From contig JBAVLA010000111.1 in NCBI GenBank assembly GCA_049688595.1, positions 1 to 57,490 on the forward strand: DNA of 57,490 nt. The letters are read 5' to 3'. Position numbers and translations under genes: made by a program. A model generated the notes under the pieces. That model made no database searches, was not told the DNA's origin, and saw nothing but the letters and a program-made list of their open reading frames with translations. Positions within the stretch are counted from its first letter, which is position 1. Each line of letters starts with the position of its first letter. Origin of the DNA: Candidatus Nanopelagicales bacterium (GTDB lineage: Bacteria; Actinomycetota; Actinomycetes; S36-B12; CAIYMF01). Positions 649-44,580 of the stretch are shown piece by piece.

Positions 649-3333
649 CTAGTCCCGGACGATGGGCGGCGCCTCAGGAGCGGTGACCGGGGTCTTCGAG
701 GGTCGTGACAGGTTCAGGATGGCCTTGGTGACCCGTGCGCAGTTGCCGCCCTCTCGGAACGGGAACGTGCTGTGGATACGATCCAGGTAGGGCTGTTGGG
801 GCGTGGGCCCTGCAGCAACCACTTCCTCGATCGCGTCCAGCGCAGCAGGGAGATCCTCAGTGAGTGGCCCGAACCCGTCTCGTGCATAGGAGAAGTAGCC
901 CGGCCTGGTCAGGTGCTGCCCGCCGAAGACAGCGGCCCGGTCGAACTGGAAGTACACAACGGGTCGCTCGATGAGTGCGGCGTCGAATGCGATTGAGGAG
1001 TAGTCGGTCACCACCGCGGCCGCACCGGCAAGCATCTCCTGAACATCGCAGTCGCGATAGGAGACGACGCGTACGTCGTCGGGGAGGCGGAACTGGGGCA
1101 AGTAGGGCTCCAGGTTGGGGTGGGGCATGAACACGATCTTCAGGCCCATCGAGCGAGCCGCCTCAGCCACTCGGCTCGAGGAGATCAGGGAGGACCACTC
1201 CAGTGAGAACTGCGTTCGGTCGAAGTCCTCGATGAGCGCACGCTCCCCTGAGCCGGGCTTCACCGCCCCTAAGAGGAACTGCCGCCAGGTCGGCATGATC
1301 AGGAGGTTCTTGCGGTTCTCCGGCGTGGTCCCCAGACCCAGCCGGGCCAGGCGGTCGTGGCGCGGAAAACCAGTGAGTTGGACCTCCTTGCTGGTCAGAC
1401 GGTAGGGAGATCCATTGCCGATGATGGACTCGAATTCCGGCTGCGTCGTCGTGAGCATCAGGTCGATCGGCTTGTTGTTCAGCCATGCACTCAGATCGTC
1501 CTTGGTGACGCCATGCTGCAGGAAGGTGTAGCGCCACTTGGGCGTGCCGAACCGCAAGAGGTCTGCCGGCCTGACCACGTAATGGTCGATATGCGACGAG
1601 ATGAGATGCCGCGCAGCCAGAGAGACAGCCATCCACTCCCGGGATCCGTGGGCGACCACGTTCCCCAGACCCTCACGGTTCAGGCGCTCCCAGTCCTTGG
1701 TTCCTGCCTTCACCGTGAACCACGCGTTGATGTCCGGACGATTTCGGCGCAAGTACCGGAAGAGGTGCTCGGCGTTGTCGTGTGAGTTGATGTCCCGGTC
1801 CATAAGCAGCCAAGCATCAGCGAAGCGATCCTCGCTCCGAAGCCGGTTCAGGCGTCGTCCCTCCCACCAGCCGGGAGCCTCTCCGGGACTGGGCCGCCCT
1901 AGACCCTGACCAGGCTGAACGCGTGCGGCCTGAGCCCGTGGCGCCCCATTGCGCTCGGCCTGCGCGCTCTTCGGCGTTGGATCGGGCACTCCGAAGGCCC
2001 TGCGGACGTCGGCCGGACGCCAGCTCACCTTCCGCCTGGGGCGATGGCGCCACAAAGGGACCAGAACTCCGTCGAGGACCAGTTCCAGAGATCCGTCGGT
2101 ACGAACCCACAGGACACGCTCATTGACTAGGGTGCGGCCCGAGTAGATTAGCGCTCGAGTCTTGCTGTGAACCGGCTCGGAGACAAGGCCCCTCCAGCGG
2201 ACCGCCTCGGACGGGGCCGAACCGGTGTACAGGTACGTCAGTCGCACCAGTCTGCGGTCCGGGTCGAACCTGTCCATCACCGCCCCGTCCTCATGCCACG
2301 GCGCGGCACGATAGGCGTGCGCAAGGACTGAAACGCGGCTGGGCGGCAAGGACAGGACCTCGAAGCGCTCGATCACTGACGTGTCCAGGTAGGCGGTGAC
2401 CCTGCTCACGAGCTCGTGGTACTCGTCCTCGACCCCATGGTCTACAGCACGCATGCTGTGGACCAAGGCCTCCTCGGCTCGGAGGAGCCAGCTCAACTCA
2501 TAGATCATCGTATTCTGCAGCCACGTGGGAACGTCCTCGTACTTCTGCTTGGCCAATTGCAGGACGTCGAGGTAGCCGTATCGAGGGACTGCCGTGAATC
2601 GCTCTGGCCGCGAGGTCGCGGTCTGAAGCGAGGAGGACTGATCGGATCTGCGTCGGTACTGATAGTGGGCACTGGCAACGAACCCAATCAGTGGTCGACC
2701 GGTCAACAACAGGTACCGCGCGATGAAATGGGCGTCCTCGAAGAGCGGTCGCACCCGGTCGTCGAAGTTGACCTGTGCTTCGAGCAGGGCAGTTCTGGGC
2801 AGGAAGGCCGAGGCCACGTGCATGTGGAAGTAGTCCGGGAAGCGCTCCAGGTCCACAAGCTGATCTCCCCCTTTGAATCGCGCCCGGAGGGGGTGGTTGT
2901 TGATCAGCCGGTCCTTGTCCTCCTCGTACACGATGAGGTTGCCAACGACCATTGCCGGCTCTTCGGGTTGCCCATCGAGAAACGTCGCGATCTGCGACAG
3001 GTACTCAGGCGCCAGAATGTCGTCGGGGTCGGTGAACGTGATCCACTCCCCGGTGGCGTACGTGATCCCCATGTTCCTGGCTGAGCCCTGGCCACCGTTC
3101 TCCTTCGTGACGATCGTCACAAGCCCTGGCGCCCGCTCCTGCCATTGCCGCAGCACCTCCGGGGACTCATCGGTCGATCCGTCGTCGACCATGATCACTT
3201 CCACGCGACTCAGGTCGAAGACCTGACTGTCTATCGAATTGATGAAGTCCGGGAGGTATCGGGCGACGTTGTAGACGGCGCTGACGATGCTGAATCTCGG
3301 CTGTTCGCCAGGAGTCGGATCGCTGGGGCTCAC
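649..3333 (-). CDS. bifunctional glycosyltransferase family 2 / CDP-glycerol glycerophosphotransferase (TagF-like)
   Basis: 894-aa ORF. The N-terminus 'FSIVSAVYNVARYLPDFINSIDSQ...VDDGSTDES...TDPDD' is a GT2 signature. The C-terminal half ('LMDRDINSHDNAEHLFRYL', 'TFLQHGVTKDDLS', 'YAPTWR-like IMPTWRQF', 'PHPN') matches TagF/CDP-glycerol transferases. Confidence 0.85.
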   Translation of the reverse strand: MSPSDPTPGEQPRFSIVSAVYNVARYLPDFINSIDSQVFDLSRVEVIMVDDGSTDESPEVLRQWQERAPGLVTIVTKENGGQGSARNMGITYATGEWITFTDPDDILAPEYLSQIATFLDGQPEEPAMVVGNLIVYEEDKDRLINNHPLRARFKGGDQLVDLERFPDYFHMHVASAFLPRTALLEAQVNFDDRVRPLFEDAHFIARYLLLTGRPLIGFVASAHYQYRRRSDQSSSLQTATSRPERFTAVPRYGYLDVLQLAKQKYEDVPTWLQNTMIYELSWLLRAEEALVHSMRAVDHGVEDEYHELVSRVTAYLDTSVIERFEVLSLPPSRVSVLAHAYRAAPWHEDGAVMDRFDPDRRLVRLTYLYTGSAPSEAVRWRGLVSEPVHSKTRALIYSGRTLVNERVLWVRTDGSLELVLDGVLVPLWRHRPRRKVSWRPADVRRAFGVPDPTPKSAQAERNGAPRAQAARVQPGQGLGRPSPGEAPGWWEGRRLNRLRSEDRFADAWLLMDRDINSHDNAEHLFRYLRRNRPDINAWFTVKAGTKDWERLNREGLGNVVAHGSREWMAVSLAARHLISSHIDHYVVRPADLLRFGTPKWRYTFLQHGVTKDDLSAWLNNKPIDLMLTTTQPEFESIIGNGSPYRLTSKEVQLTGFPRHDRLARLGLGTTPENRKNLLIMPTWRQFLLGAVKPGSGERALIEDFDRTQFSLEWSSLISSSRVAEAARSMGLKIVFMPHPNLEPYLPQFRLPDDVRVVSYRDCDVQEMLAGAAAVVTDYSSIAFDAALIERPVVYFQFDRAAVFGGQHLTRPGYFSYARDGFGPLTEDLPAALDAIEEVVAAGPTPQQPYLDRIHSTFPFREGGNCARVTKAILNLSRPSKTPVTAPEAPPIVRD

Positions 3334-3464
3334 TCGGTCAACGTATCCCCCGCGTGGAATCGTTGTCCCGACAGCGGGGACCCGTCCGACCCGCCAGGAA
3401 CGCGGCCCCGTCCCCCCTCCCGACCACGGACCTGAGGAGACGCGCTGTCCACACGCCCGAACGC

Positions 3465-3503
3465 ATGATGAGGGCCCTGGGTGCGCCCCAGGGCCCTCAT
3501 CAT
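3465..3503 (-). terminator. perfect 17-bp stem hairpin directly 3' of tRNA-Pro
   Basis: atgatgagggccctggg / cccagggccctcatcat around a 5-nt loop, starting 5 nt beyond the tRNA 3' end. No clear U-tract, which is common in actinobacteria. Confidence 0.55.
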
Positions 3504-3507
3504 CGGG

Positions 3508-3581
<74 letters not shown>

Positions 3582-3676
3582 ATTCGTTCTCATTCTAGCC
3601 GTTCGGCATGCCGGGCCCCAAACCACGCACCCGGCCTTGGACCCGCATCACGTGCCTGCGGGGCCCGCACATCGTG

Positions 3677-6018
<2,342 letters not shown>

Positions 6019-38331: not shown

Positions 38332-38608
38332 GTGAGTCCCCTTGCTGGCGTCCGTCGCCCCCTGCGTTGCGGGAAGCCCGGGCCCGGTTCCAGCGGAGCG
38401 GCCCGCTTGCGCTGCCCAGTCGTCCCCGTCAACCCGTAGGTGCCTCCGAGCCCAGACCCAATAATTGTGCCTGACCGGCACGGAAGGCAGCAGAACGCGA
38501 GGCACGGTGTTCCACCCCCAGGGTTGGCACCGCCCCGCTCGTCGCGGATCGCGTGCCGTGGTCGGCAGTCCTCGAGTCGCAGCCCGAGGCCCAGGCAGCC
38601 CCGGTTGG

Positions 38609-38788
38609 TAACCTCGCAGTTGAGTTGTGGGTTATGGCCTCGGCGGCGGCCGCGTGGGGGTGACCTCGCAGCTGAGTTGTGGCTTATCGGGTCACGCGTG
38701 GGCGCCATAGCCCACAACTGGGGCGCGAGGTTGGCGCTCATGGGGGCGAGGCGGGGCCATTCTCGACAACTTGGCTGCGAGGTTGTGG
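38609..38788. repeat. four copies of a ~27-bp motif arranged -> -> <- <- (symmetric about ~38697)
   Basis: ACCTCGCAGtTGAGTTGTGGgTTATgG starts at 38611 and ACCTCGCAGcTGAGTTGTGGcTTATcG at 38663. Their reverse complements end at 38731 and 38783. Units are 52 bp apart in each arm, and the spacers are not conserved. Confidence 0.85.
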
Positions 38789-38948
38789 TGACGGGTCACC
38801 CCACCCACGGCGTGCATCCAGCGCAGAGCCTCTCCACGAGCACGCCCCGCTTCGATTCCGACAACGGATTCCACCAGGGCCGCCGCCAACCACGTTGGAC
38901 CGGGGACGGCGACTCCTTGGGGGCTTGGCGGCGGCCCCGGCATGGACC

Positions 38949-39206
38949 ATGCTGGCTGCTATGACGTGTCGAGTCGTGATCGGGTTCGCGCACGGGGCCG
39001 ATCCAACGCTGGTCCGGCGGGCCGTCCTCGACAGCGGGCTGCCAGCTGGAACCGAGGCGCTCGACGTCGGTGAGGTGCTGCCCGACGTCCTGGTTGTCCG
39101 GATCCCGGCAGATCAGGCCCCTGTGGCGCTGCTCGCGCAGCTCAGGATGATCCCTGGCGTCGCCTACGCGGAGCAGGAGCGGATCTACGGGGCGTTCGAC
39201 CAGTAG
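38949..39206 (+). CDS. small stand-alone peptidase-inhibitor-I9 (subtilase propeptide)-like protein
   Basis: High-GC3 ORF 'M(LAAM)TCRVVIGFAHGADPTLVRRAVLDSG...VLVVRIPADQAPVALLAQLRMIPGVAYAEQERIYGAF'. Its ending parallels the pro-region of the nearby S8 ('RLNGLDEVAYAEPVLLREAF'). The start is 38949 or 38961, with no clear SD. The upstream part of the track ORF covers the repeat array. Confidence 0.55.
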   Translation: MLAAMTCRVVIGFAHGADPTLVRRAVLDSGLPAGTEALDVGEVLPDVLVVRIPADQAPVALLAQLRMIPGVAYAEQERIYGAFDQ

Positions 39207-39240
39207 GGCTCGGACGGCGATGAGGAGTCCACCACGACGC

Positions 39241-40668
39241 TCAGCCGTCTCGCGCCGGGATCGGTCTCGGGAGGGCCATGGATGGGAGCTCGTGGCGGGC
39301 GTCCAGGCGCAGCAGGCCAAGGGCGATCCCGGCACGTCCCAGGTACAGACCGGGGGGTTCCCCGGCCGAGGAGCCCAGAGCAGCTTCGGACGGGCCCGGC
39401 ACCGAGGCGATGGTGGTCCCCTGGGGGGCGGGCAGTCCGCACGGCCACGCCCCCGAATGCTCCCGCTGCGCCAGGATCACGTCGCCAACGCGGGTCGCTG
39501 CGCGCAGGTGGTCGTGGCCTCCGGGGAGGTCCGCCGCCGCGAGCAGCAGTTCCGTCACTCCCCCGAGGCCGTGGCAGAGGGAGGCGTCCGTCGTGATGCC
39601 TTCGCGCAGCGCGGCCCGGGCTGCCATGGCGCGCCTGCGACCGGATTCGATGGCAGCGGTGACCTCGGCCAGCAGCGCGAGTCTCAGTGGGGAGTCCGGG
39701 AACCACGACAGCCATGCAAGCCGGGCGCAGCCGATGCCGAGCGCCCCGTGGCACCAAGCGACCATGCCCGGACTGCCCCGGGTGGCCGCTGATCGGGTGT
39801 CCCGTTCGAGGTCGCGCCCGAGGGAAGGGCGCAGGTCCGGCCAGTTCGAGGTGTCGGGGTCGAACCAGGACCGCTCGTAGTCCCATGCGGCGCGAGCCAC
39901 GTCCGCCAGGTCGTCGCGACACTGCGAAGCTGCCATCAGGGCCAATCCGGTTCCCGACGCTCCGTGCGCCAGTCCGAGGAGACCACGGCCGTCTGGACCG
40001 TCCGACTCGGGCCAGGAAGCTCCGATCAGCCCAGGTCGGGCCTGCGCGGCGAGCCGCTGTGCGGCAGCTCCCACGGCGGTGCGCAACTGCTCATCGTCCG
40101 GGCACGTGGCGAGCAGGGCGAGGATCACCCCAGCGGTCCCACCCAAATAGTCAGGATCGACGGGCAGGTCCGCGATCACGCTGGCGGTCGACCGGGCCAG
40201 GTCAATCGCTCCAAGCAGCAGGTCCCGGTCAGATGCCAGGTGACCGACCCAGGCTGCCGCGTGAGCGATCCCGGAAGAACCCGAGGCGAGGTCGACCGAC
40301 CCGGATCGGGCCAAGGCAGCCCCGGCCGTCAAGGACTCCGCAGCAGCGCTCGTGGCGAGATCGAGCAGTCGATCGTCGTCTGCCACTCTCCCAGCCCCGG
40401 CCAGGGCCAGGGCGATGCCGCTGGACCCGGAGTAGAGCCCGGGCCCCACCGGGAGGTCAGCGATGCGCCAGTCGAGGTCGTTGCCGAGGACCTCAGGACC
40501 GATCCACCGGAGCCCGGTTCGGCTGGATACGTCGCGCGCCGGCGCGACGCCCATAGCTGGGGGCACGCCGGGGGATGGCCCAGTTGGAGGCGGCACCGCC
40601 GACCCGATCGCTTCATCTGCGATCTGCCGCGCCAGTTCGATGCCGGCCAATCGATGTCGGTCAGGCAT
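39241..40668 (-). CDS. LanC-like lanthionine cyclase family protein
   Basis: 475 aa with repeated 'G(L)xxGxxGIALAL' toroid motifs: 'GLYSGSSGIALALAGAG', 'LAHGASGTGLAL' and 'GLYLGRAGIALGLL'. The Zn-ligand motifs 'AWCHGALGIG' and 'SLCHGLGG' are present. Confidence 0.85.
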   Translation of the reverse strand: MPDRHRLAGIELARQIADEAIGSAVPPPTGPSPGVPPAMGVAPARDVSSRTGLRWIGPEVLGNDLDWRIADLPVGPGLYSGSSGIALALAGAGRVADDDRLLDLATSAAAESLTAGAALARSGSVDLASGSSGIAHAAAWVGHLASDRDLLLGAIDLARSTASVIADLPVDPDYLGGTAGVILALLATCPDDEQLRTAVGAAAQRLAAQARPGLIGASWPESDGPDGRGLLGLAHGASGTGLALMAASQCRDDLADVARAAWDYERSWFDPDTSNWPDLRPSLGRDLERDTRSAATRGSPGMVAWCHGALGIGCARLAWLSWFPDSPLRLALLAEVTAAIESGRRRAMAARAALREGITTDASLCHGLGGVTELLLAAADLPGGHDHLRAATRVGDVILAQREHSGAWPCGLPAPQGTTIASVPGPSEAALGSSAGEPPGLYLGRAGIALGLLRLDARHELPSMALPRPIPARDG

Positions 40669-41626
40669 CCGGGCTCCTCAGCCACGGCCGTGTCGGGTCC
40701 ACCCCGGATGCTGCCAGGGCGTCGGCGAGAACCGCCAGCGGGTCGGCCATGGCCGCGCCCGCCGACGCCAGCCCCAACACCCCGGGGGCCAGGGCCGCGC
40801 AGATGTGCGATCCGAAGCTGTGGTCACCGCCGGGATCCTCCGCGTAGGAGATCAGCTCCCCGATCGGCTCGGTCAGCGGTGGCAGGTGCGGCTGCATGAA
40901 CCTCGACTGCGCCGACGCCACCTCGGCCAGAGCGGCCCTTACCTGGGCGGACTGCGCGCATTCCGCGTACACCACGAGGGCATCGGGACGCCGCCAGGCC
41001 AAGGGATCGATCGGGAGCTTGAGCGACCAGGGGAAGTCGGCATCCAGCAGCAGGGAGGTGATGCCATGGACGACCCCGGCCACGCCGGGGACGCAGGGGT
41101 GCAGGTAGTGCCGGCCCAGGGGCTGGGCCGGCTCCCCCAACTCGGAGCGCGTACCCCACCAGCGCGTCTCGTAGTCCACCCGGTCGACCAACCGGGAGAT
41201 GGCCGCCTCCTCACCGGGGGCGATCGGGATGCCAGGGCGATTCAGGTTCACGTAGGAGCCGATCGGGACCACGCGCTGCTCCCGATCCCGACCGACCAGG
41301 CAGCCACCCCCGTCGAGCACGGCCAGCACCACCCAGCCCCGGGAGTAGGTGGTCGACCCCGCGTGGGAGGCCCGCAGGACCCCCGACAGGTCGTCCCGCG
41401 ACCCGGCGCCCTGCCAGTCCGATGGTTCCGATTCACCGACGGGCCGGTCATCAGAGGGCCGCCCAGGCACGATCTCGGCCCGGGAGTCGAGGTACCAGGC
41501 GCCGTAGATGGCCGAGGCGATCTCGGCGACCCCCATCGATGCCCACGTGGTGTCCGACGCCCCGCCACCCCGAACCGGGGGCGCAGATCCGGGGCCGGCT
41601 TGCCCATTGGGGGATCGCGTGACCAT
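40661..41626 (-). CDS. putative HopA1-like (class V LanX-type) phospho-Ser/Thr lyase; otherwise hypothetical
   Basis: 321 aa from the ATG at 41626; the track ORF start would overlap the kinase. It sits between an APH-fold kinase and a LanC-like gene with an 8-nt overlap. 'RHYLHP...FPWSLKLPIDPLAWRRPDALVVYAE' resembles my recollection of HopA1-family conserved blocks. No HMM was run. Confidence 0.5.
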   Translation of the reverse strand: MVTRSPNGQAGPGSAPPVRGGGASDTTWASMGVAEIASAIYGAWYLDSRAEIVPGRPSDDRPVGESEPSDWQGAGSRDDLSGVLRASHAGSTTYSRGWVVLAVLDGGGCLVGRDREQRVVPIGSYVNLNRPGIPIAPGEEAAISRLVDRVDYETRWWGTRSELGEPAQPLGRHYLHPCVPGVAGVVHGITSLLLDADFPWSLKLPIDPLAWRRPDALVVYAECAQSAQVRAALAEVASAQSRFMQPHLPPLTEPIGELISYAEDPGGDHSFGSHICAALAPGVLGLASAGAAMADPLAVLADALAASGVDPTRPWLRSPDA

Positions 41627-41652
41627 GCGGGCCAGCCGCGTCAGGTCCCGGG

Positions 41653-42666
41653 CTACCCCGGGCGGAAGCGCTGCGCCCACCGCACCATCATGCCCGCGAG
41701 CCGGTCGCCATCCCCCACCAGCAGCCTTGCCCGCTCCAGCAGCGCAGCTGACTCCACGTCGGCGCCGGCCTCGGCGCATTCCAGCGCAAGGTGCACCAGC
41801 CGCGCCGGCCAGTAGTCAGCGACCCGCGCCGGATCAGCTGGACCGCCCTCAGCGAAGTAGGCGCTCACCAGGGCTGACCGGTCGTCATCCCCGGGTCTGC
41901 CGGAATCGGCCTCCAAGGCGATTGACGAGGCCATCGCCGCAGCGAGATCCCAGGCCGGGTCGCCGAGCCCGGACAGCTCCCAGTCGATCAGCCGCACGAC
42001 CGGCGGCGTGGCCGTCAGGTCCACCAGGCAGTTGTCCCACTTCACGTCGCCGTGTACCAGACACGTGGCCTGCCACAGGCTCCGGGCCCGGGTCAGGGCA
42101 GGTCCGAGCACGGTGTCCCCAGCCAGTGACAGGGCCACCTGCCGGGCCCGCGCAAGGGTGATCACGGGCGGCGGATCACAGGACAGGTCGAGCACCCCAG
42201 CGGAGGCCCGGAACGGGATCGGAACGCCCTGCGTGGCCAGATGGGCGCGCGCCAGCGCCCGGCCGAGGGCAGCCGAGGCGCTCGGGCTCGGCAGGAGGGC
42301 GCGCGACACGAGGTCCCGACCCGTGGACTGCGTGTCCGCGGCCTCGATGACCACGACCTGGCGCCGCTCGTCGACCAGATGCACCCGTGGCATCACCGAA
42401 GCCAGGCCGGGCCGCCAGGAGGCCAGCCGGTAGGCGAAGGCTTCAGCAGCCAGAGTCCGACCGGCCTCGAGCGCGTCGATCGCGGGTACCTTCACGATCA
42501 CGCTGCGGCCAGAAGCTGAGACCCGATGAACCGAGTGCGACCCGCCGATCTGGGTCGCCTCGGCCGAACCGGCATCGGGCAGCCCTGCTGCCGCTGCCGC
42601 CGCCCACGGACCGGGGGGACGCGGCAGACCCGCGCCCCACCGGTCGGTTGCCATCGTCGACGACAA
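41653..42666 (-). CDS. APH-fold (aminoglycoside phosphotransferase-like) protein kinase
   Basis: 'CLVHGDVKWDNCLV' is the HGDxxxxN catalytic loop, 'RLIDWELSGLGDPAWDLA' is the metal-binding D, and the N-lobe has 'VIVKVP'. The start is TTG 42666 or ATG 42654, 5-17 nt after the S8 stop. Confidence 0.8.
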   Translation of the reverse strand: MSSTMATDRWGAGLPRPPGPWAAAAAAGLPDAGSAEATQIGGSHSVHRVSASGRSVIVKVPAIDALEAGRTLAAEAFAYRLASWRPGLASVMPRVHLVDERRQVVVIEAADTQSTGRDLVSRALLPSPSASAALGRALARAHLATQGVPIPFRASAGVLDLSCDPPPVITLARARQVALSLAGDTVLGPALTRARSLWQATCLVHGDVKWDNCLVDLTATPPVVRLIDWELSGLGDPAWDLAAAMASSIALEADSGRPGDDDRSALVSAYFAEGGPADPARVADYWPARLVHLALECAEAGADVESAALLERARLLVGDGDRLAGMMVRWAQRFRPG

Positions 42667-42671
42667 GGCGG

Positions 42672-44396
42672 TCAGGATTCGCCGTAGTCGGTGCCGTACG
42701 GGTCATCGCCGAACACGTCGAAGCCGCGGATGGGCAGGTCTGGGTTACCCCCACAGACCGGCCCGCTCGGGCAGGCCTGCACGCTCGGGCACACCGCCAC
42801 GCTGGGACAGGCGACGAGGGCTGACGGGCGCGGATCGCATGCGACGCCCACCGTCCGCTGACAGATCACCTGCCGGCTGACCGGCTCGCACACGACGATC
42901 TGGGACGGTGACTGGCACACGATCGGCCGGGTCACCTGCTGGCAGGACACGGTCTGCGTCCGGCATGAGACAAGTCGCGACACAGGCTGGTCGCAGATGA
43001 CCGGCCGGGTGACCAGCCCACCGCACGACACGAGTTGGCGTGATACCGGCGGGCAGGCGCGATCCAGCGCGGCGCGTGCATCGACCAGTCCTGCGCCGTA
43101 GCGATCGTTCGGGACGGGATCGCCAGGGTTGTCCCGCAGCGGGCGGGCGGTGTCGAGGATCGCCTGGCGCACCTGTGCGGCGGTGAGGGCACTGCGGCAG
43201 GAGAACAGCAGCGCGGCGACTCCGGCCACGTGCGGCGAGGCCATCGACGTCCCGTCCATCGTGGCATGGGAGTTGTCCCACACCGTGCTGAGGATGCCCA
43301 CGCCGGGTGCCGACACCGCTATGTGCGTGCCCATGCTGGAGAACGGAGCGCGGGCATCGTTGATGTCGACGGCCCCGACGGCCATGACCCCGGCGAACGC
43401 CGCCGGGAACTGGGGGACCGAGTTCCCGGTGTTCCCCATGGCGACCACCACCAAGCAGCCACGCGTGTTCGCGTAGGCGATGGCGTCGGCGGTCACCTGA
43501 TCGGCACCTGGGCCACCGAGACTCATGTTGATGACCCGGGCGCCGTGGTCGGCTGCCCAACGGATTCCGGCGGCGATGTCGACCGAGGAGCCGAAGCCGC
43601 TGATGCGGTTGTCGGAGAGCCGCCGCGCTCGGTTCAGCACCTTGACGGGAAGGATCCGGCAGCTCCAGGTGACCCCGGCCACCCCCACGCCCTCGTTGCT
43701 GGCGCATGCAATAGTCCCTGCGACATGGGTGCCGTGTCCCACCTCGTCCTGGGGGACATTGTCCCTGCCGTTGAAGTCGCCCTCCCAGACCCATCCAGGC
43801 TGGGGCGGCCCCGGGTTCGGGCCGAAGTCGACCAGGTCCTGCCCGGGCAGGAGGAGTCCGGCAAGCTCTGGATGGTCCAGGTCCACCCCGGTGTCCACGA
43901 CCGCGACGATCACCGAGGCGTCGCCCGTGGTCCGGTCCCAGGCCTCAGGGCCACGGATCTTGGCCAGGCCCCACTGCTGGGGATACCGGGGATCGTTGGG
44001 GACCACGAACGCCTCGCGCAGGAGGACCGGCTCGGCGTAGGCCACCTCGTCCAGGCCGTTGAGCCTGGTCACTGCCGTGGACACCTTCGTGGCTGGGTCG
44101 AACCGGACGCGGTAGGTGTTCTCCAGGGTGGCCTGAACGTCGGCGGCCATCACACCGCGGGGAGCCGGAGGCAGGGGCGGGTGGACCTTGCGCACGTCGA
44201 CGACCTTGAGCTTGCTCAGGGCATCGTCGAGGGTGGAGGATCCGAGGGCCCGCAGGCCGGTGGGCCCGCCCCGGCTGGGGCCGTTCGGCACGCTCACCTC
44301 AAGGGTGCTGCCGATTTCGGGCTTGAGGCTGATCACGACCTCGCCAGGCACCTCTACGGGTTCTGGACCGAGGAAGGAATTGACTTCCATCGTCAC
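42672..44396 (-). CDS. S8 family serine peptidase (subtilase) with N-terminal pro-like domain and C-terminal periodic Cys/Ser/Thr-rich tail
   Basis: AGGAGG lies 5 nt before the ATG. The catalytic triad appears in 'VAVVDTGVD', 'GHGTHVAG' and 'GTSMASPHVAG'. No N-terminal signal peptide is visible ('MTMEVNSFLGPEPVEV'). The last 127 aa hold 13 Cys at 6-10-residue spacing. Confidence 0.9.
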   Translation of the reverse strand: MTMEVNSFLGPEPVEVPGEVVISLKPEIGSTLEVSVPNGPSRGGPTGLRALGSSTLDDALSKLKVVDVRKVHPPLPPAPRGVMAADVQATLENTYRVRFDPATKVSTAVTRLNGLDEVAYAEPVLLREAFVVPNDPRYPQQWGLAKIRGPEAWDRTTGDASVIVAVVDTGVDLDHPELAGLLLPGQDLVDFGPNPGPPQPGWVWEGDFNGRDNVPQDEVGHGTHVAGTIACASNEGVGVAGVTWSCRILPVKVLNRARRLSDNRISGFGSSVDIAAGIRWAADHGARVINMSLGGPGADQVTADAIAYANTRGCLVVVAMGNTGNSVPQFPAAFAGVMAVGAVDINDARAPFSSMGTHIAVSAPGVGILSTVWDNSHATMDGTSMASPHVAGVAALLFSCRSALTAAQVRQAILDTARPLRDNPGDPVPNDRYGAGLVDARAALDRACPPVSRQLVSCGGLVTRPVICDQPVSRLVSCRTQTVSCQQVTRPIVCQSPSQIVVCEPVSRQVICQRTVGVACDPRPSALVACPSVAVCPSVQACPSGPVCGGNPDLPIRGFDVFGDDPYGTDYGES

Positions 44397-44580
44397 CTCC
44401 TAGGTTTCGGGCGTGCGATGGCGCCCGATCGGACGGTGTCAGAGGCAGCGTCACGGCTGCGTCGTCGCACCGTCCGCGCCGCGTATCGGGGAAGGTGCAC
44501 CAGGCGTGACCGAGGTCAGGTGTCCATGGGGATCGCAGGCGTCGGCGTTCCGGCGGCGATCAGGCCAGGGCTTGGCTGCC

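Follow-up and report, generated by a model that had tools for sequence, protein, structure and literature searches.

A cytoplasmic subtilase with a cysteine-repeat tail as the probable multi-ring substrate of neighboring lanthionine enzymes

The window is a 57,490-nucleotide stretch of a Candidatus Nanopelagicales bacterium (contig JBAVLA010000111.1, positions 1 to 57,490) that harbors, on its minus strand, a gene for an S8-family subtilase whose C-terminal end is a cysteine-rich repeat. Genes for a kinase, a lyase, and a LanC-type cyclase follow directly. Judged from the sequences, this tail can be regarded with good confidence as a substrate that the three enzymes (the triad) cross-link, and it likely represents a tandem multi-ring lanthipeptide core carried by a cytoplasmic subtilase. 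The modifications and the ring topology are deduced from the enzyme families and from comparative genomics. The assignment is based on the register of Ser/Thr and Cys in the tail, the intact catalytic residues of the enzymes, the joint occurrence and joint loss of tail and triad, the switching of tail chemistry in sister proteases, the predicted disorder of the tail, and its lack of resemblance to a known domain. The protease gene and its C-terminal features are the following:

42672..44396, minus strand: S8 subtilase gene (574 aa), whose product consists of prodomain, catalytic domain, and, at the C-terminus, the Cys-repeat tail (open reading frame (ORF) and Pfam).
42753..43055, minus strand: Cys-repeat tail, residues 448-548, with 13 Cys in 12 units, the predicted multi-ring (methyl)lanthionine core.
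42675..42752, minus strand: acidic and aromatic C-terminal end, residues 549-574, with the family motif D-P-Y-G-x-D-Y-G.
42675-42707, minus strand: DDPYGTDYGES, the window copy of this motif.

The cysteines of the tail lie at residues 448, 458, 468, 478, 485, 494, 503, 512, 520, 530, 536, 542, and 548, which gives Cys-to-Cys spacings of 10,10,10,7,9,9,9,8,10,6,6,6. The original prediction had quoted the last 127 residues together with these 13 cysteines, their spacings, and the coordinates 42753-43055, all of which agree exactly with the translated ORF. Its further claim of a Ser or Thr 4-6 residues before every next Cys holds for all 12 inter-Cys segments (eight at position -5, three at -4, and one at -6). 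The in-register residues comprise eight Ser and four Thr in units of the type [P]-(S/T)-x-x-(I/V/L)-x-C. Thirteen cysteines in 101 tail residues compare with only four in the preceding 447 residues. The GC content at third codon positions in the frame of the S8 gene is 0.84 in the tail and 0.86 in the catalytic part, which indicates that tail and protease are translated together as one protein. Repetition at the DNA level is confined to the last 2.2 units, with an 18-nt period (Tandem Repeats Finder), and the repeat array is therefore considered old and maintained at the protein level.

The repeat is directly followed by the acidic end GGNPDLPIRGFDVFGDDPYGTDYGES. Among 116 aligned family sequences, D565 and P566 are invariant, and Y567 and Y571 are conserved in at least 90%. 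This end may serve for recognition (as a “follower”) or for docking. In L007 (S8 ORF from 7339) and P0124, the tail consists of two Cys/Thr-rich modules set apart by an Ala/Gly/Tyr-rich spacer, and a separate D-P-Y-G motif comes after each of them, which suggests that the motif is functionally part of each tail module.

A search with the whole protein yields thousands of S8 relatives, of which 120 listed homologs together with the window protein (n=121) were used for the statistics. The tail contains 8-23 Cys (median 13) in 118 of these 121 sequences. The three low-Cys exceptions are a deletion variant, a truncation at a contig end, and an apparent frameshift, and they were rejected as evidence against conservation of the tail. 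The family consensus is a unit [P]-(S/T)-x-x-(I/V/L)-x-C, with D-P-Y-G-x-D-Y-G at the end. The register was quantified in 116 tails with 1351 inter-Cys segments, using a control in which the non-Cys residues are permuted within each tail. Ser/Thr occupies position -5 in 64% of the segments that have such a position, or 61% of all 1351 segments compared to 20% +/- 1 after shuffling, and is found at -4 to -6 in 90% of the 1351 segments compared to 47% +/- 1. The periodicity of the tail is not due to chance. Pro at -6 (42% of segments) and Ile/Val/Leu at -2 (69%) complete the unit. Position -5 relative to the downstream Cys holds Ser/Thr in 64%, position +2 relative to the upstream Cys in 48%; this closer tie to the downstream Cys fits rings formed between a dehydroamino acid at position i and the Cys at i+5. 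Ring-capable placement of Ser/Thr and Cys, as in a lanthipeptide core, is hence found in 12 of 12 segments of the window tail and in 90% across the family.

Tail-bearing S8 proteins form a large family, not noticed in the original prediction, that extends across several phyla, with members in Nonomuraea, Streptosporangium, Nocardioides, Microbacterium, Mesorhizobium, Luteitalea (Acidobacteriota), and Nitrospira. Apart from the cross-link positions the tail sequences are hypervariable. In the compact C-P-S-x4-C units, nothing but one Pro would separate neighboring rings.

The original prediction had asked for profile searches and structure prediction on the tail as a check for known disulfide-rich or metal-binding domains, and none was matched. 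The window tail has no Pfam match at E<=1 and no match among Protein Data Bank sequences at E<=10, and Pfam and NCBIfam searches with the tail and the other Cys-repeat proteins described below return nothing beyond a sub-threshold match to C_tripleX. In an AlphaFold2 model built from the 116-sequence alignment, the tail is predicted to be disordered: it takes on no secondary structure, almost all of residues 456-563 have a predicted local distance difference test score (pLDDT) below 50, and the C-terminal end is also low. An extracellular disulfide-rich domain is unlikely since the family lacks a signal peptide by a hydropathy test. When the tail alone was compared to a collection of 5.8 billion proteins, 35 candidates and no significant match were obtained. 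The tail is too repetitive and biased in composition to serve as a query by itself, and further carriers were therefore sought through the cyclase.

The original prediction had named the next three genes as a kinase, a putative lyase, and a LanC-like cyclase, an assignment that Pfam confirms and that is joined by intact catalytic residues in all three:

41653..42666, minus strand: APH-family kinase (LanK-like), starting 5 nt past the S8 stop codon (Pfam APH, E 1.7e-15).
40661..41779, minus strand: HopA1-family phospho-Ser/Thr lyase (LanY-like; Pfam HopA1, E 1.4e-19).
39241..40668, minus strand: stand-alone LanC-type zinc cyclase, whose start overlaps the lyase stop by 8 nt (Pfam LANC_like, E 8.7e-42).

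The catalytic motifs of the kinase, HGDVKWDN (42031-42054) and IDWELSG (41968-41988), sit in the conserved H-x-D-x-K-x-D-N and D-W-E of the family. The longest ORF of the lyase extends 127 nt into the kinase gene, and the ~50 Arg/Gly-rich residues with which it begins lack conservation; the true start is probably the GTG at 41680 or the ATG at 41626 rather than 41779. Arg223, Lys254, Arg264, and Tyr271 of the lyase are conserved in other loci. In the class V lyase CaoY, Arg187 and Lys219 are required for phosphate elimination and Arg229 contributes to it, as determined by mutagenesis, while the conserved Tyr236 was left unchanged in that work (PMC9486802). The spacing from Lys to Arg (10) and from Lys to Tyr (17) in the window lyase is that of K219/R229/Y236 in CaoY, and the upstream Arg stands 31 residues before the Lys, compared to 32 in CaoY. 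The LanC protein matches the cyclase part of the LanM model with 177 bits (NCBIfam), and its motifs GLAHG (His235), WCHG (Cys306), and LCHG (Cys365, His366) are invariant, so that the Cys/Cys/His zinc ligands and the catalytic His are present. The components of a class V system are thus all found, i.e., an APH kinase with an intact loop, a HopA1 lyase with its residues, and a stand-alone zinc LanC, and together they resemble an apparently competent class Vb lanthionine machinery. A fused version of two of these proteins is seen in Nitrospira (L162, 9984-12302), where a HopA1 lyase and a LanC form one protein of 772 aa downstream of a tail-bearing S8 and a kinase.

Tail and triad are inherited together. 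This was assessed in 17 loci, including the window, whose downstream DNA could be read, a sample rather than a full census. Kinase, HopA1 lyase, and LanC follow the tail-bearing S8 in identical order in all of them. The count is 13 of 13 when only loci found through the protease are considered, and 8 of 8, again in the same order, for the loci L001-L003 and L005-L009 from a genome scan (one genome per species, queried with the protease alignment). Luteitalea, Nitrospira, Nonomuraea, and a relative with a Thr/Pro tail carry the same cassette between unrelated flanking genes; as these flanks differ in every genome, the unit is self-contained. The triad is absent from all 71 generic S8 loci and from both close tail-less S8 loci (L004 and P0009/L163), which yields a Fisher p = 5.7e-18 for 17/17 against 0/73. 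The survey that the original prediction had proposed for such co-occurrence therefore comes out in its favor. L004, from Streptomyces, is a close relative (58% identity) with neither tail nor triad. In P0009/L163 (7001-8485), the S8 catalytic domain is joined without a break to the last ~45 residues of LanC, which indicates that a single deletion took the tail, the kinase, the lyase, and most of LanC. The adjacency to and co-inheritance with lanthionine enzymes that mark a lanthipeptide core are hence both seen for the tail. No separate small LanA-type ORF with Cys and Ser/Thr is present in the intergenic regions 44397-44580 and 38506-39240.

The position before the kinase was additionally surveyed from the side of the cyclase. 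An alignment of LanC proteins was used as query, 80 metagenomic loci were fetched, and kinase, lyase, and readable upstream DNA were required. In L084, L086, L093, and L122, an S8 with a Cys tail stands directly before the kinase. A second type of Cys-repeat carrier is found there in L139, L099, L096, L106, and L120; it starts with a conserved N-domain of ~130 residues (pattern ..LLxGYLGxSSEExxxRLYLDxxLxxYVEIP..; L139 1323-2507, L099 514-1491) without a Pfam match and continues with C-P-P-T-P-type repeats, and the L139 tail terminates in C-P-S-G-P-x-C-G, a motif common to S8 tails. In L152 (4235-5551), L113 (914-1888), and L118 (1581-2537), the gene immediately before the triad encodes a giant non-protease repeat protein of the CGGPTHCGGIHTCAPTC type. 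With lengths of 319-439 residues, these proteins contain 49-73 Cys (the maximum of 73 within 439 residues) and have no Pfam or NCBIfam match. In L138 and L160 (~3615-5600), a papain-like (C1) peptidase is followed by a multi-core repeat protein with 26 Cys, built of the repeats GADCKNVMWTAGCTFAG and GFGCIQITATTFCTV, and then by the triad; here, the protease is separate and not fused. Ordinary short LanA-like peptides precede the kinase in L089, L092, L102, L103, and L114. Since the other occupants are repeat or LanA-like precursors, the slot upstream of the kinase is a precursor slot, which in the window is filled by the S8 tail.

A profile search of 1.84 billion representatives reveals sister S8 proteases that resemble the family in having the prodomain, in lacking a signal peptide, and in how the catalytic domain ends, and that differ in their repetitive tails and in the enzymes encoded next to them:

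P0133/L168 and P0126/L166: tail of T-x-K-F-x-D-D or Lys/Asp repeats, with an MvdD-type ATP-grasp ligase downstream.
P0140/L171: Asp/Thr/Pro-rich polar tail with no clear repeat unit, with an MvdD-type ATP-grasp ligase downstream.
P0128/L170: KPEGY-repeat tail, with an ATP-grasp gene two genes downstream.
P0130/L169: Pro/Cys tail (CRIPPPPPC...CGPCGPC), with a YcaO and a nitroreductase-like dehydrogenase downstream.
P0127/L167: Thr/Pro tail with only two Cys, with the lanthionine triad downstream.

In L168, the S8 gene (1050-3443) is followed by the ATP-grasp gene (3520-4470), and the repeats in sister tails include TLKFQDD and KHKFQDD. In L169, the S8 gene (583-2583) is followed by the YcaO gene (2682-4616) and the nitroreductase-like gene (4637-5395). 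MvdD-type ligases belong to the graspetide type of systems for peptides made by ribosomal synthesis with post-translational modification (RiPPs), and a YcaO with a dehydrogenase to the azoline/azole type. By their tails and neighbors, the ATP-grasp-linked sister proteases (L168, L166, L171, and L170, with MvdD- or RimK-type ligases) look like putative protease-fused graspetide precursors, and the L169 protease looks like a putative protease-fused thiazol(in)e-type precursor. The tail chemistry switches with the neighboring RiPP maturase, which argues for the tail being the substrate of the maturase and is hard to explain otherwise. At the Thr/Pro-tail loci L167 (1284-3132) and L165 (4967-6773), divergent TP_methylase and PrmA-like genes are located between a small prodomain-like gene, described below, and the S8 gene; these methyltransferases are possibly extra tailoring enzymes.

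The reaction would start with an S8 protein that is synthesized without a signal peptide and presents a disordered tail. The APH-type kinase would phosphorylate the Ser/Thr located 4-6 residues (mostly 5) before each Cys. Subsequently, the HopA1-type lyase would eliminate the phosphate, yielding dehydroalanine or dehydrobutyrine, and the zinc LanC would add the thiol of the downstream Cys to close the ring. The predicted product would carry up to 12 consecutive non-overlapping rings (eight lanthionine and four methyllanthionine), correspond to a mass shift of -216 Da, and retain one spare Cys.

The protease itself is a typical subtilase:

44010..44354, minus strand: N-terminal prodomain, residues ~15-129 (Pfam Peptidase_S8_N covers 18-125).
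43089..43916, minus strand: catalytic domain, residues 161-436 (Pfam).
43893-43895, minus strand: Asp168, in the motif VVDTGVD.
43734-43736, minus strand: His221, in the motif GHGTHVAG.
43431-43433, minus strand: Asn322 (oxyanion), in the motif AMGNTG.
43245-43247, minus strand: Ser384, in the motif GTSMASP.

The 574-aa protein matches Peptidase_S8 with an E of 3.4e-55 and Peptidase_S8_N with an E of 2.9e-7 (Pfam). The Asp/His/Ser catalytic triad, the oxyanion Asn, and the N-terminal prodomain that define subtilases are all present. His221, Asn322, and Ser384 are invariant and Asp168 is conserved in at least 90% of the 116-sequence alignment, and all four residues are invariant in an alignment of 18 sequences. 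Prodomain and protease are modeled confidently in the AlphaFold2 prediction (predicted template modeling score 0.80). The prodomain takes on a confident beta-alpha fold, and the pLDDT dips at 135-138, directly before the mature domain. The nearest solved structure is thermitase, whose alignment begins at residue 132. A hydrophobic N-terminal segment was not found in any of the 116 family sequences by a simple hydropathy scan, which is not a dedicated signal-peptide predictor; the N-termini are acidic or polar, and the maximum Kyte-Doolittle 10-residue mean is <=2.3. The window S8 thus lacks the signal peptide that marks secreted subtilases. The GC content of the window is 65-72%, and the best named relative of the S8 protein is found in Nocardioides insulae (62% identity). 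Scans of the window cassette gave no promoters or terminators. Defense-system models (PADLOC) return a generic “subtilase” match for the S8 protein and none for the kinase, lyase, and cyclase; a known anti-phage defense system is unsupported, as the S8 match is generic.

A fifth gene, which the original prediction did not notice, belongs to the cassette:

38949..39206, plus strand, inside the ORF 38679..39206: small gene convergent with LanC, ~81-85 aa, subtilase-prodomain-like.

This small gene adjoins the S8 gene in all S8-type loci with enough flanking DNA, as judged by a hidden Markov model (HMM), and is retained at the tail-less L004 and L163 and in the ATP-grasp and YcaO types. At L171, where the upstream flank is short, there is no HMM match, and the gene is absent by HMM from the triad loci without an S8. 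Fourteen of 17 copies of the small protein match Fervidolysin_NPro-like (Pfam, best E 1.7e-9), and hhalign aligns it with the prodomain of the S8 protein at 94.8% probability. By analogy with prodomains, the small protein may inhibit the S8 protease or serve as its chaperone.

Several observations weigh against a multi-ring core in the window tail. Thirteen Cys face 12 in-register Ser/Thr, so that one Cys, probably Cys448, has no partner. No leader-like recognition element for the synthetase was identified in the S8 precursor. The kinase matches the LxmK model (NCBIfam NF038156) with an E of 1e-10 and 41.3 bits, far from the equivalog cutoff of 315, and by sequence is only a distant relative of LxmK. 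Lanthipeptide clusters typically include an exporter, but neither a transporter nor an immunity gene was seen in any cassette examined. Some triad-linked tails with few Cys keep LanC (4 Cys in L005, 2 Cys in P0127), which indicates that ring formation is not the whole story everywhere. The disorder predicted by AlphaFold2 is an absence of evidence for a fold rather than proof of its absence. Finally, the role of a tethered regulator that is considered below for the cross-linked tail is built on analogy. The lanthionine-ring assignment made in the original prediction nevertheless finds support in silico from the register, the co-occurrence, the intact enzymes, the lack of an alternative precursor ORF, and the tails of the sister proteases.

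Two explanations dispense with the rings. An unmodified Cys-rich metal-binding or disulfide domain, with a triad that acts elsewhere and whose adjacency is coincidental or regulatory, is highly improbable. Cys-rich repeats frequently bind metals and some tails at triad loci have few Cys, but searches with the tail gave no known Cys-rich or metal domain, the tail is predicted to be disordered, its cytoplasmic location argues against disulfides, and the conserved Ser/Thr at -5 has no role in metal binding. Tail and triad are moreover gained and lost together with no other precursor ORF at hand, and in the sister proteases the chemistry of the tail tracks the neighboring enzyme. Improbable as well is a capping reaction on a tail dehydrated by kinase and lyase, in which LanC, similar to eukaryotic LanCL enzymes, adds a small thiol such as mycothiol or glutathione, or quenches stray dehydroamino acids, and which leaves adducts or a tail rich in dehydroalanine and dehydrobutyrine without intramolecular rings. 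Thr/Pro-rich tails with 2-4 Cys do stand beside LanC, and enzymes of the LanC family can catalyze intermolecular thiol addition (PMC9934072). The presence of one Cys per in-register Ser/Thr at a distance of 4-6 residues, kept in 116 tails, is however unexplained by capping unless Cys is the nucleophile.

For a tail that is cross-linked by the triad, two fates can be envisaged. The tail may, as a tentative proposal by analogy, work together with the protease intracellularly, as an appendage that resists proteolysis and serves for regulation, inhibition, or docking, instead of being exported as an antibiotic. Such an intracellular, tethered role is suggested by the missing transporter and immunity genes, by two layers of prodomain-type control, and by the single Pro that separates the compact rings and would leave no space for a cut between them; the protease would be controlled in addition by two elements, the prodomain that it carries and the separate prodomain-like protein. 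Graspetides, the type predicted for sister systems, are classically serine-protease inhibitors, which points the same way. It is likewise conceivable that a whole clade of cytoplasmic subtilases with a prodomain-like partner carries tandem RiPP cores with interchangeable maturases, in which the tail serves as a built-in protease regulator, inhibitor, or handle. The main alternative, somewhat doubtful, is a self-processing RiPP, which the original prediction had considered possible and in which the S8 protein and its prodomain would act as leader and maturation protease, the chain would be cut after cross-linking between AALDRA and CP, and the acidic end would be trimmed. To be viewed with equal reserve is the outcome that the functional product would be a released polycyclic lanthipeptide of ~100 residues, or else shorter pieces with rings. 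The N-terminal position of the protease matches that of a leader, S8 enzymes are the usual class I leader peptidases and the cyanobactin maturation proteases, and the RACP junction is conserved (Cys448 invariant in the 18-sequence alignment, Pro449 in at least 90% in both alignments). The repeated D-P-Y-G motifs additionally offer Tyr as a possible P1 residue for a subtilisin, and a separate papain-like peptidase accompanies the multi-core repeat protein in L138 and L160. Self-processing is opposed by the same lack of transporter and immunity genes in the cassettes examined, by the absence of a signal peptide in the hydropathy test, and by the single Pro between the rings of compact units. The hypervariability of the tail outside the cross-link positions also speaks against it, and the lanthionine triad, ATP-grasp ligases, and YcaO enzymes would all need to accept one protease as leader.

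If the multi-ring assignment is true, a core of ~12 rings on a full-length enzyme would extend lanthionine chemistry, known from short peptides with few rings, to the scale of a protein, and the triad may serve to install many thioether staples in a protein tail. The graspetide- and azoline-type tails on the same protease scaffold would point to a shared logic of protease and macrocyclized tail, and if the tail remains tethered, post-translational macrocyclization would control an intracellular protease. The mining of class V precursors has been restricted to ORFs <110 residues (PMC9486802). Mining of such short ORFs would miss the present family, which is widespread in soil Actinomycetota, Acidobacteriota, Nitrospirota, and Alphaproteobacteria. 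The original prediction knew of no lanthipeptide core of ~12 rings fused to a protease, and none emerged from the literature searched, in which neither a protease-fused or protein-sized lanthionine or graspetide precursor nor ~12 tandem rings are described; most subscription papers lie outside this coverage. A single protease scaffold that carries three RiPP chemistries is not described there either, with prior mention possible in subscription journals.

Among known systems, the class Vb system SmoK/SmoY/SmoC with its substrate SmoA resembles the window in employing an APH kinase, a HopA1 lyase, and a zinc LanC as three proteins; its descriptions present mSmoA as the sole characterized class Vb member (PMC11186320, PMC12328550). 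Lanthipeptide precursors are short peptides with an N-terminal leader, which the 574-aa S8 protein is not: the known class Vb substrate is a short leader peptide, whereas the core in the window comprises the last 127 residues of a protease. Also, ~12 tandem non-overlapping rings are predicted here, compared to a few overlapping rings in the known case. Class III/IV synthetases (LanKC, LanL) share the sequence of phosphorylation, elimination, and Cys addition, and the window LanC weakly matches the LanL and LanKC models. In these synthetases, lyase, kinase, and cyclase lie on one polypeptide with a Pkinase-type kinase, while the window has three proteins of the APH and HopA1 types; among the tail-bearing S8 loci, only lyase and cyclase are fused, in Nitrospira.

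LanP proteases (e.g., NisP) and PatA/PatG are S8 proteases dedicated to a RiPP pathway, and PatE has tandem cores. The window S8 weakly matches the PatA/PatG model (92 bits compared to a 421-bit cutoff). In those systems the protease is separate from the precursor, whereas the window protease and its core share one polypeptide; unlike them, the window protease is thermitase-like and cytoplasmic, with a free prodomain-like partner. Multi-core graspetides of the microviridin MvdD type include many serine-protease inhibitors, and the sister subtilases with Thr/Lys/Asp tails share the architecture of the window protein and the prodomain-like gene. They differ in that ester/amide bridges take the place of the predicted thioethers, and the window locus has no ATP-grasp gene. 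Borosins (OphMA-type) carry their core at the C-terminus of their own modifying methyltransferase, and they resemble the window protein in that the core is the C-terminal tail of a full-length enzyme and the precursor is protein-sized. In borosins, however, the fused enzyme modifies its own tail, whereas the enzyme fused to the tail in the window is a protease and the predicted modifying enzymes are separate proteins.

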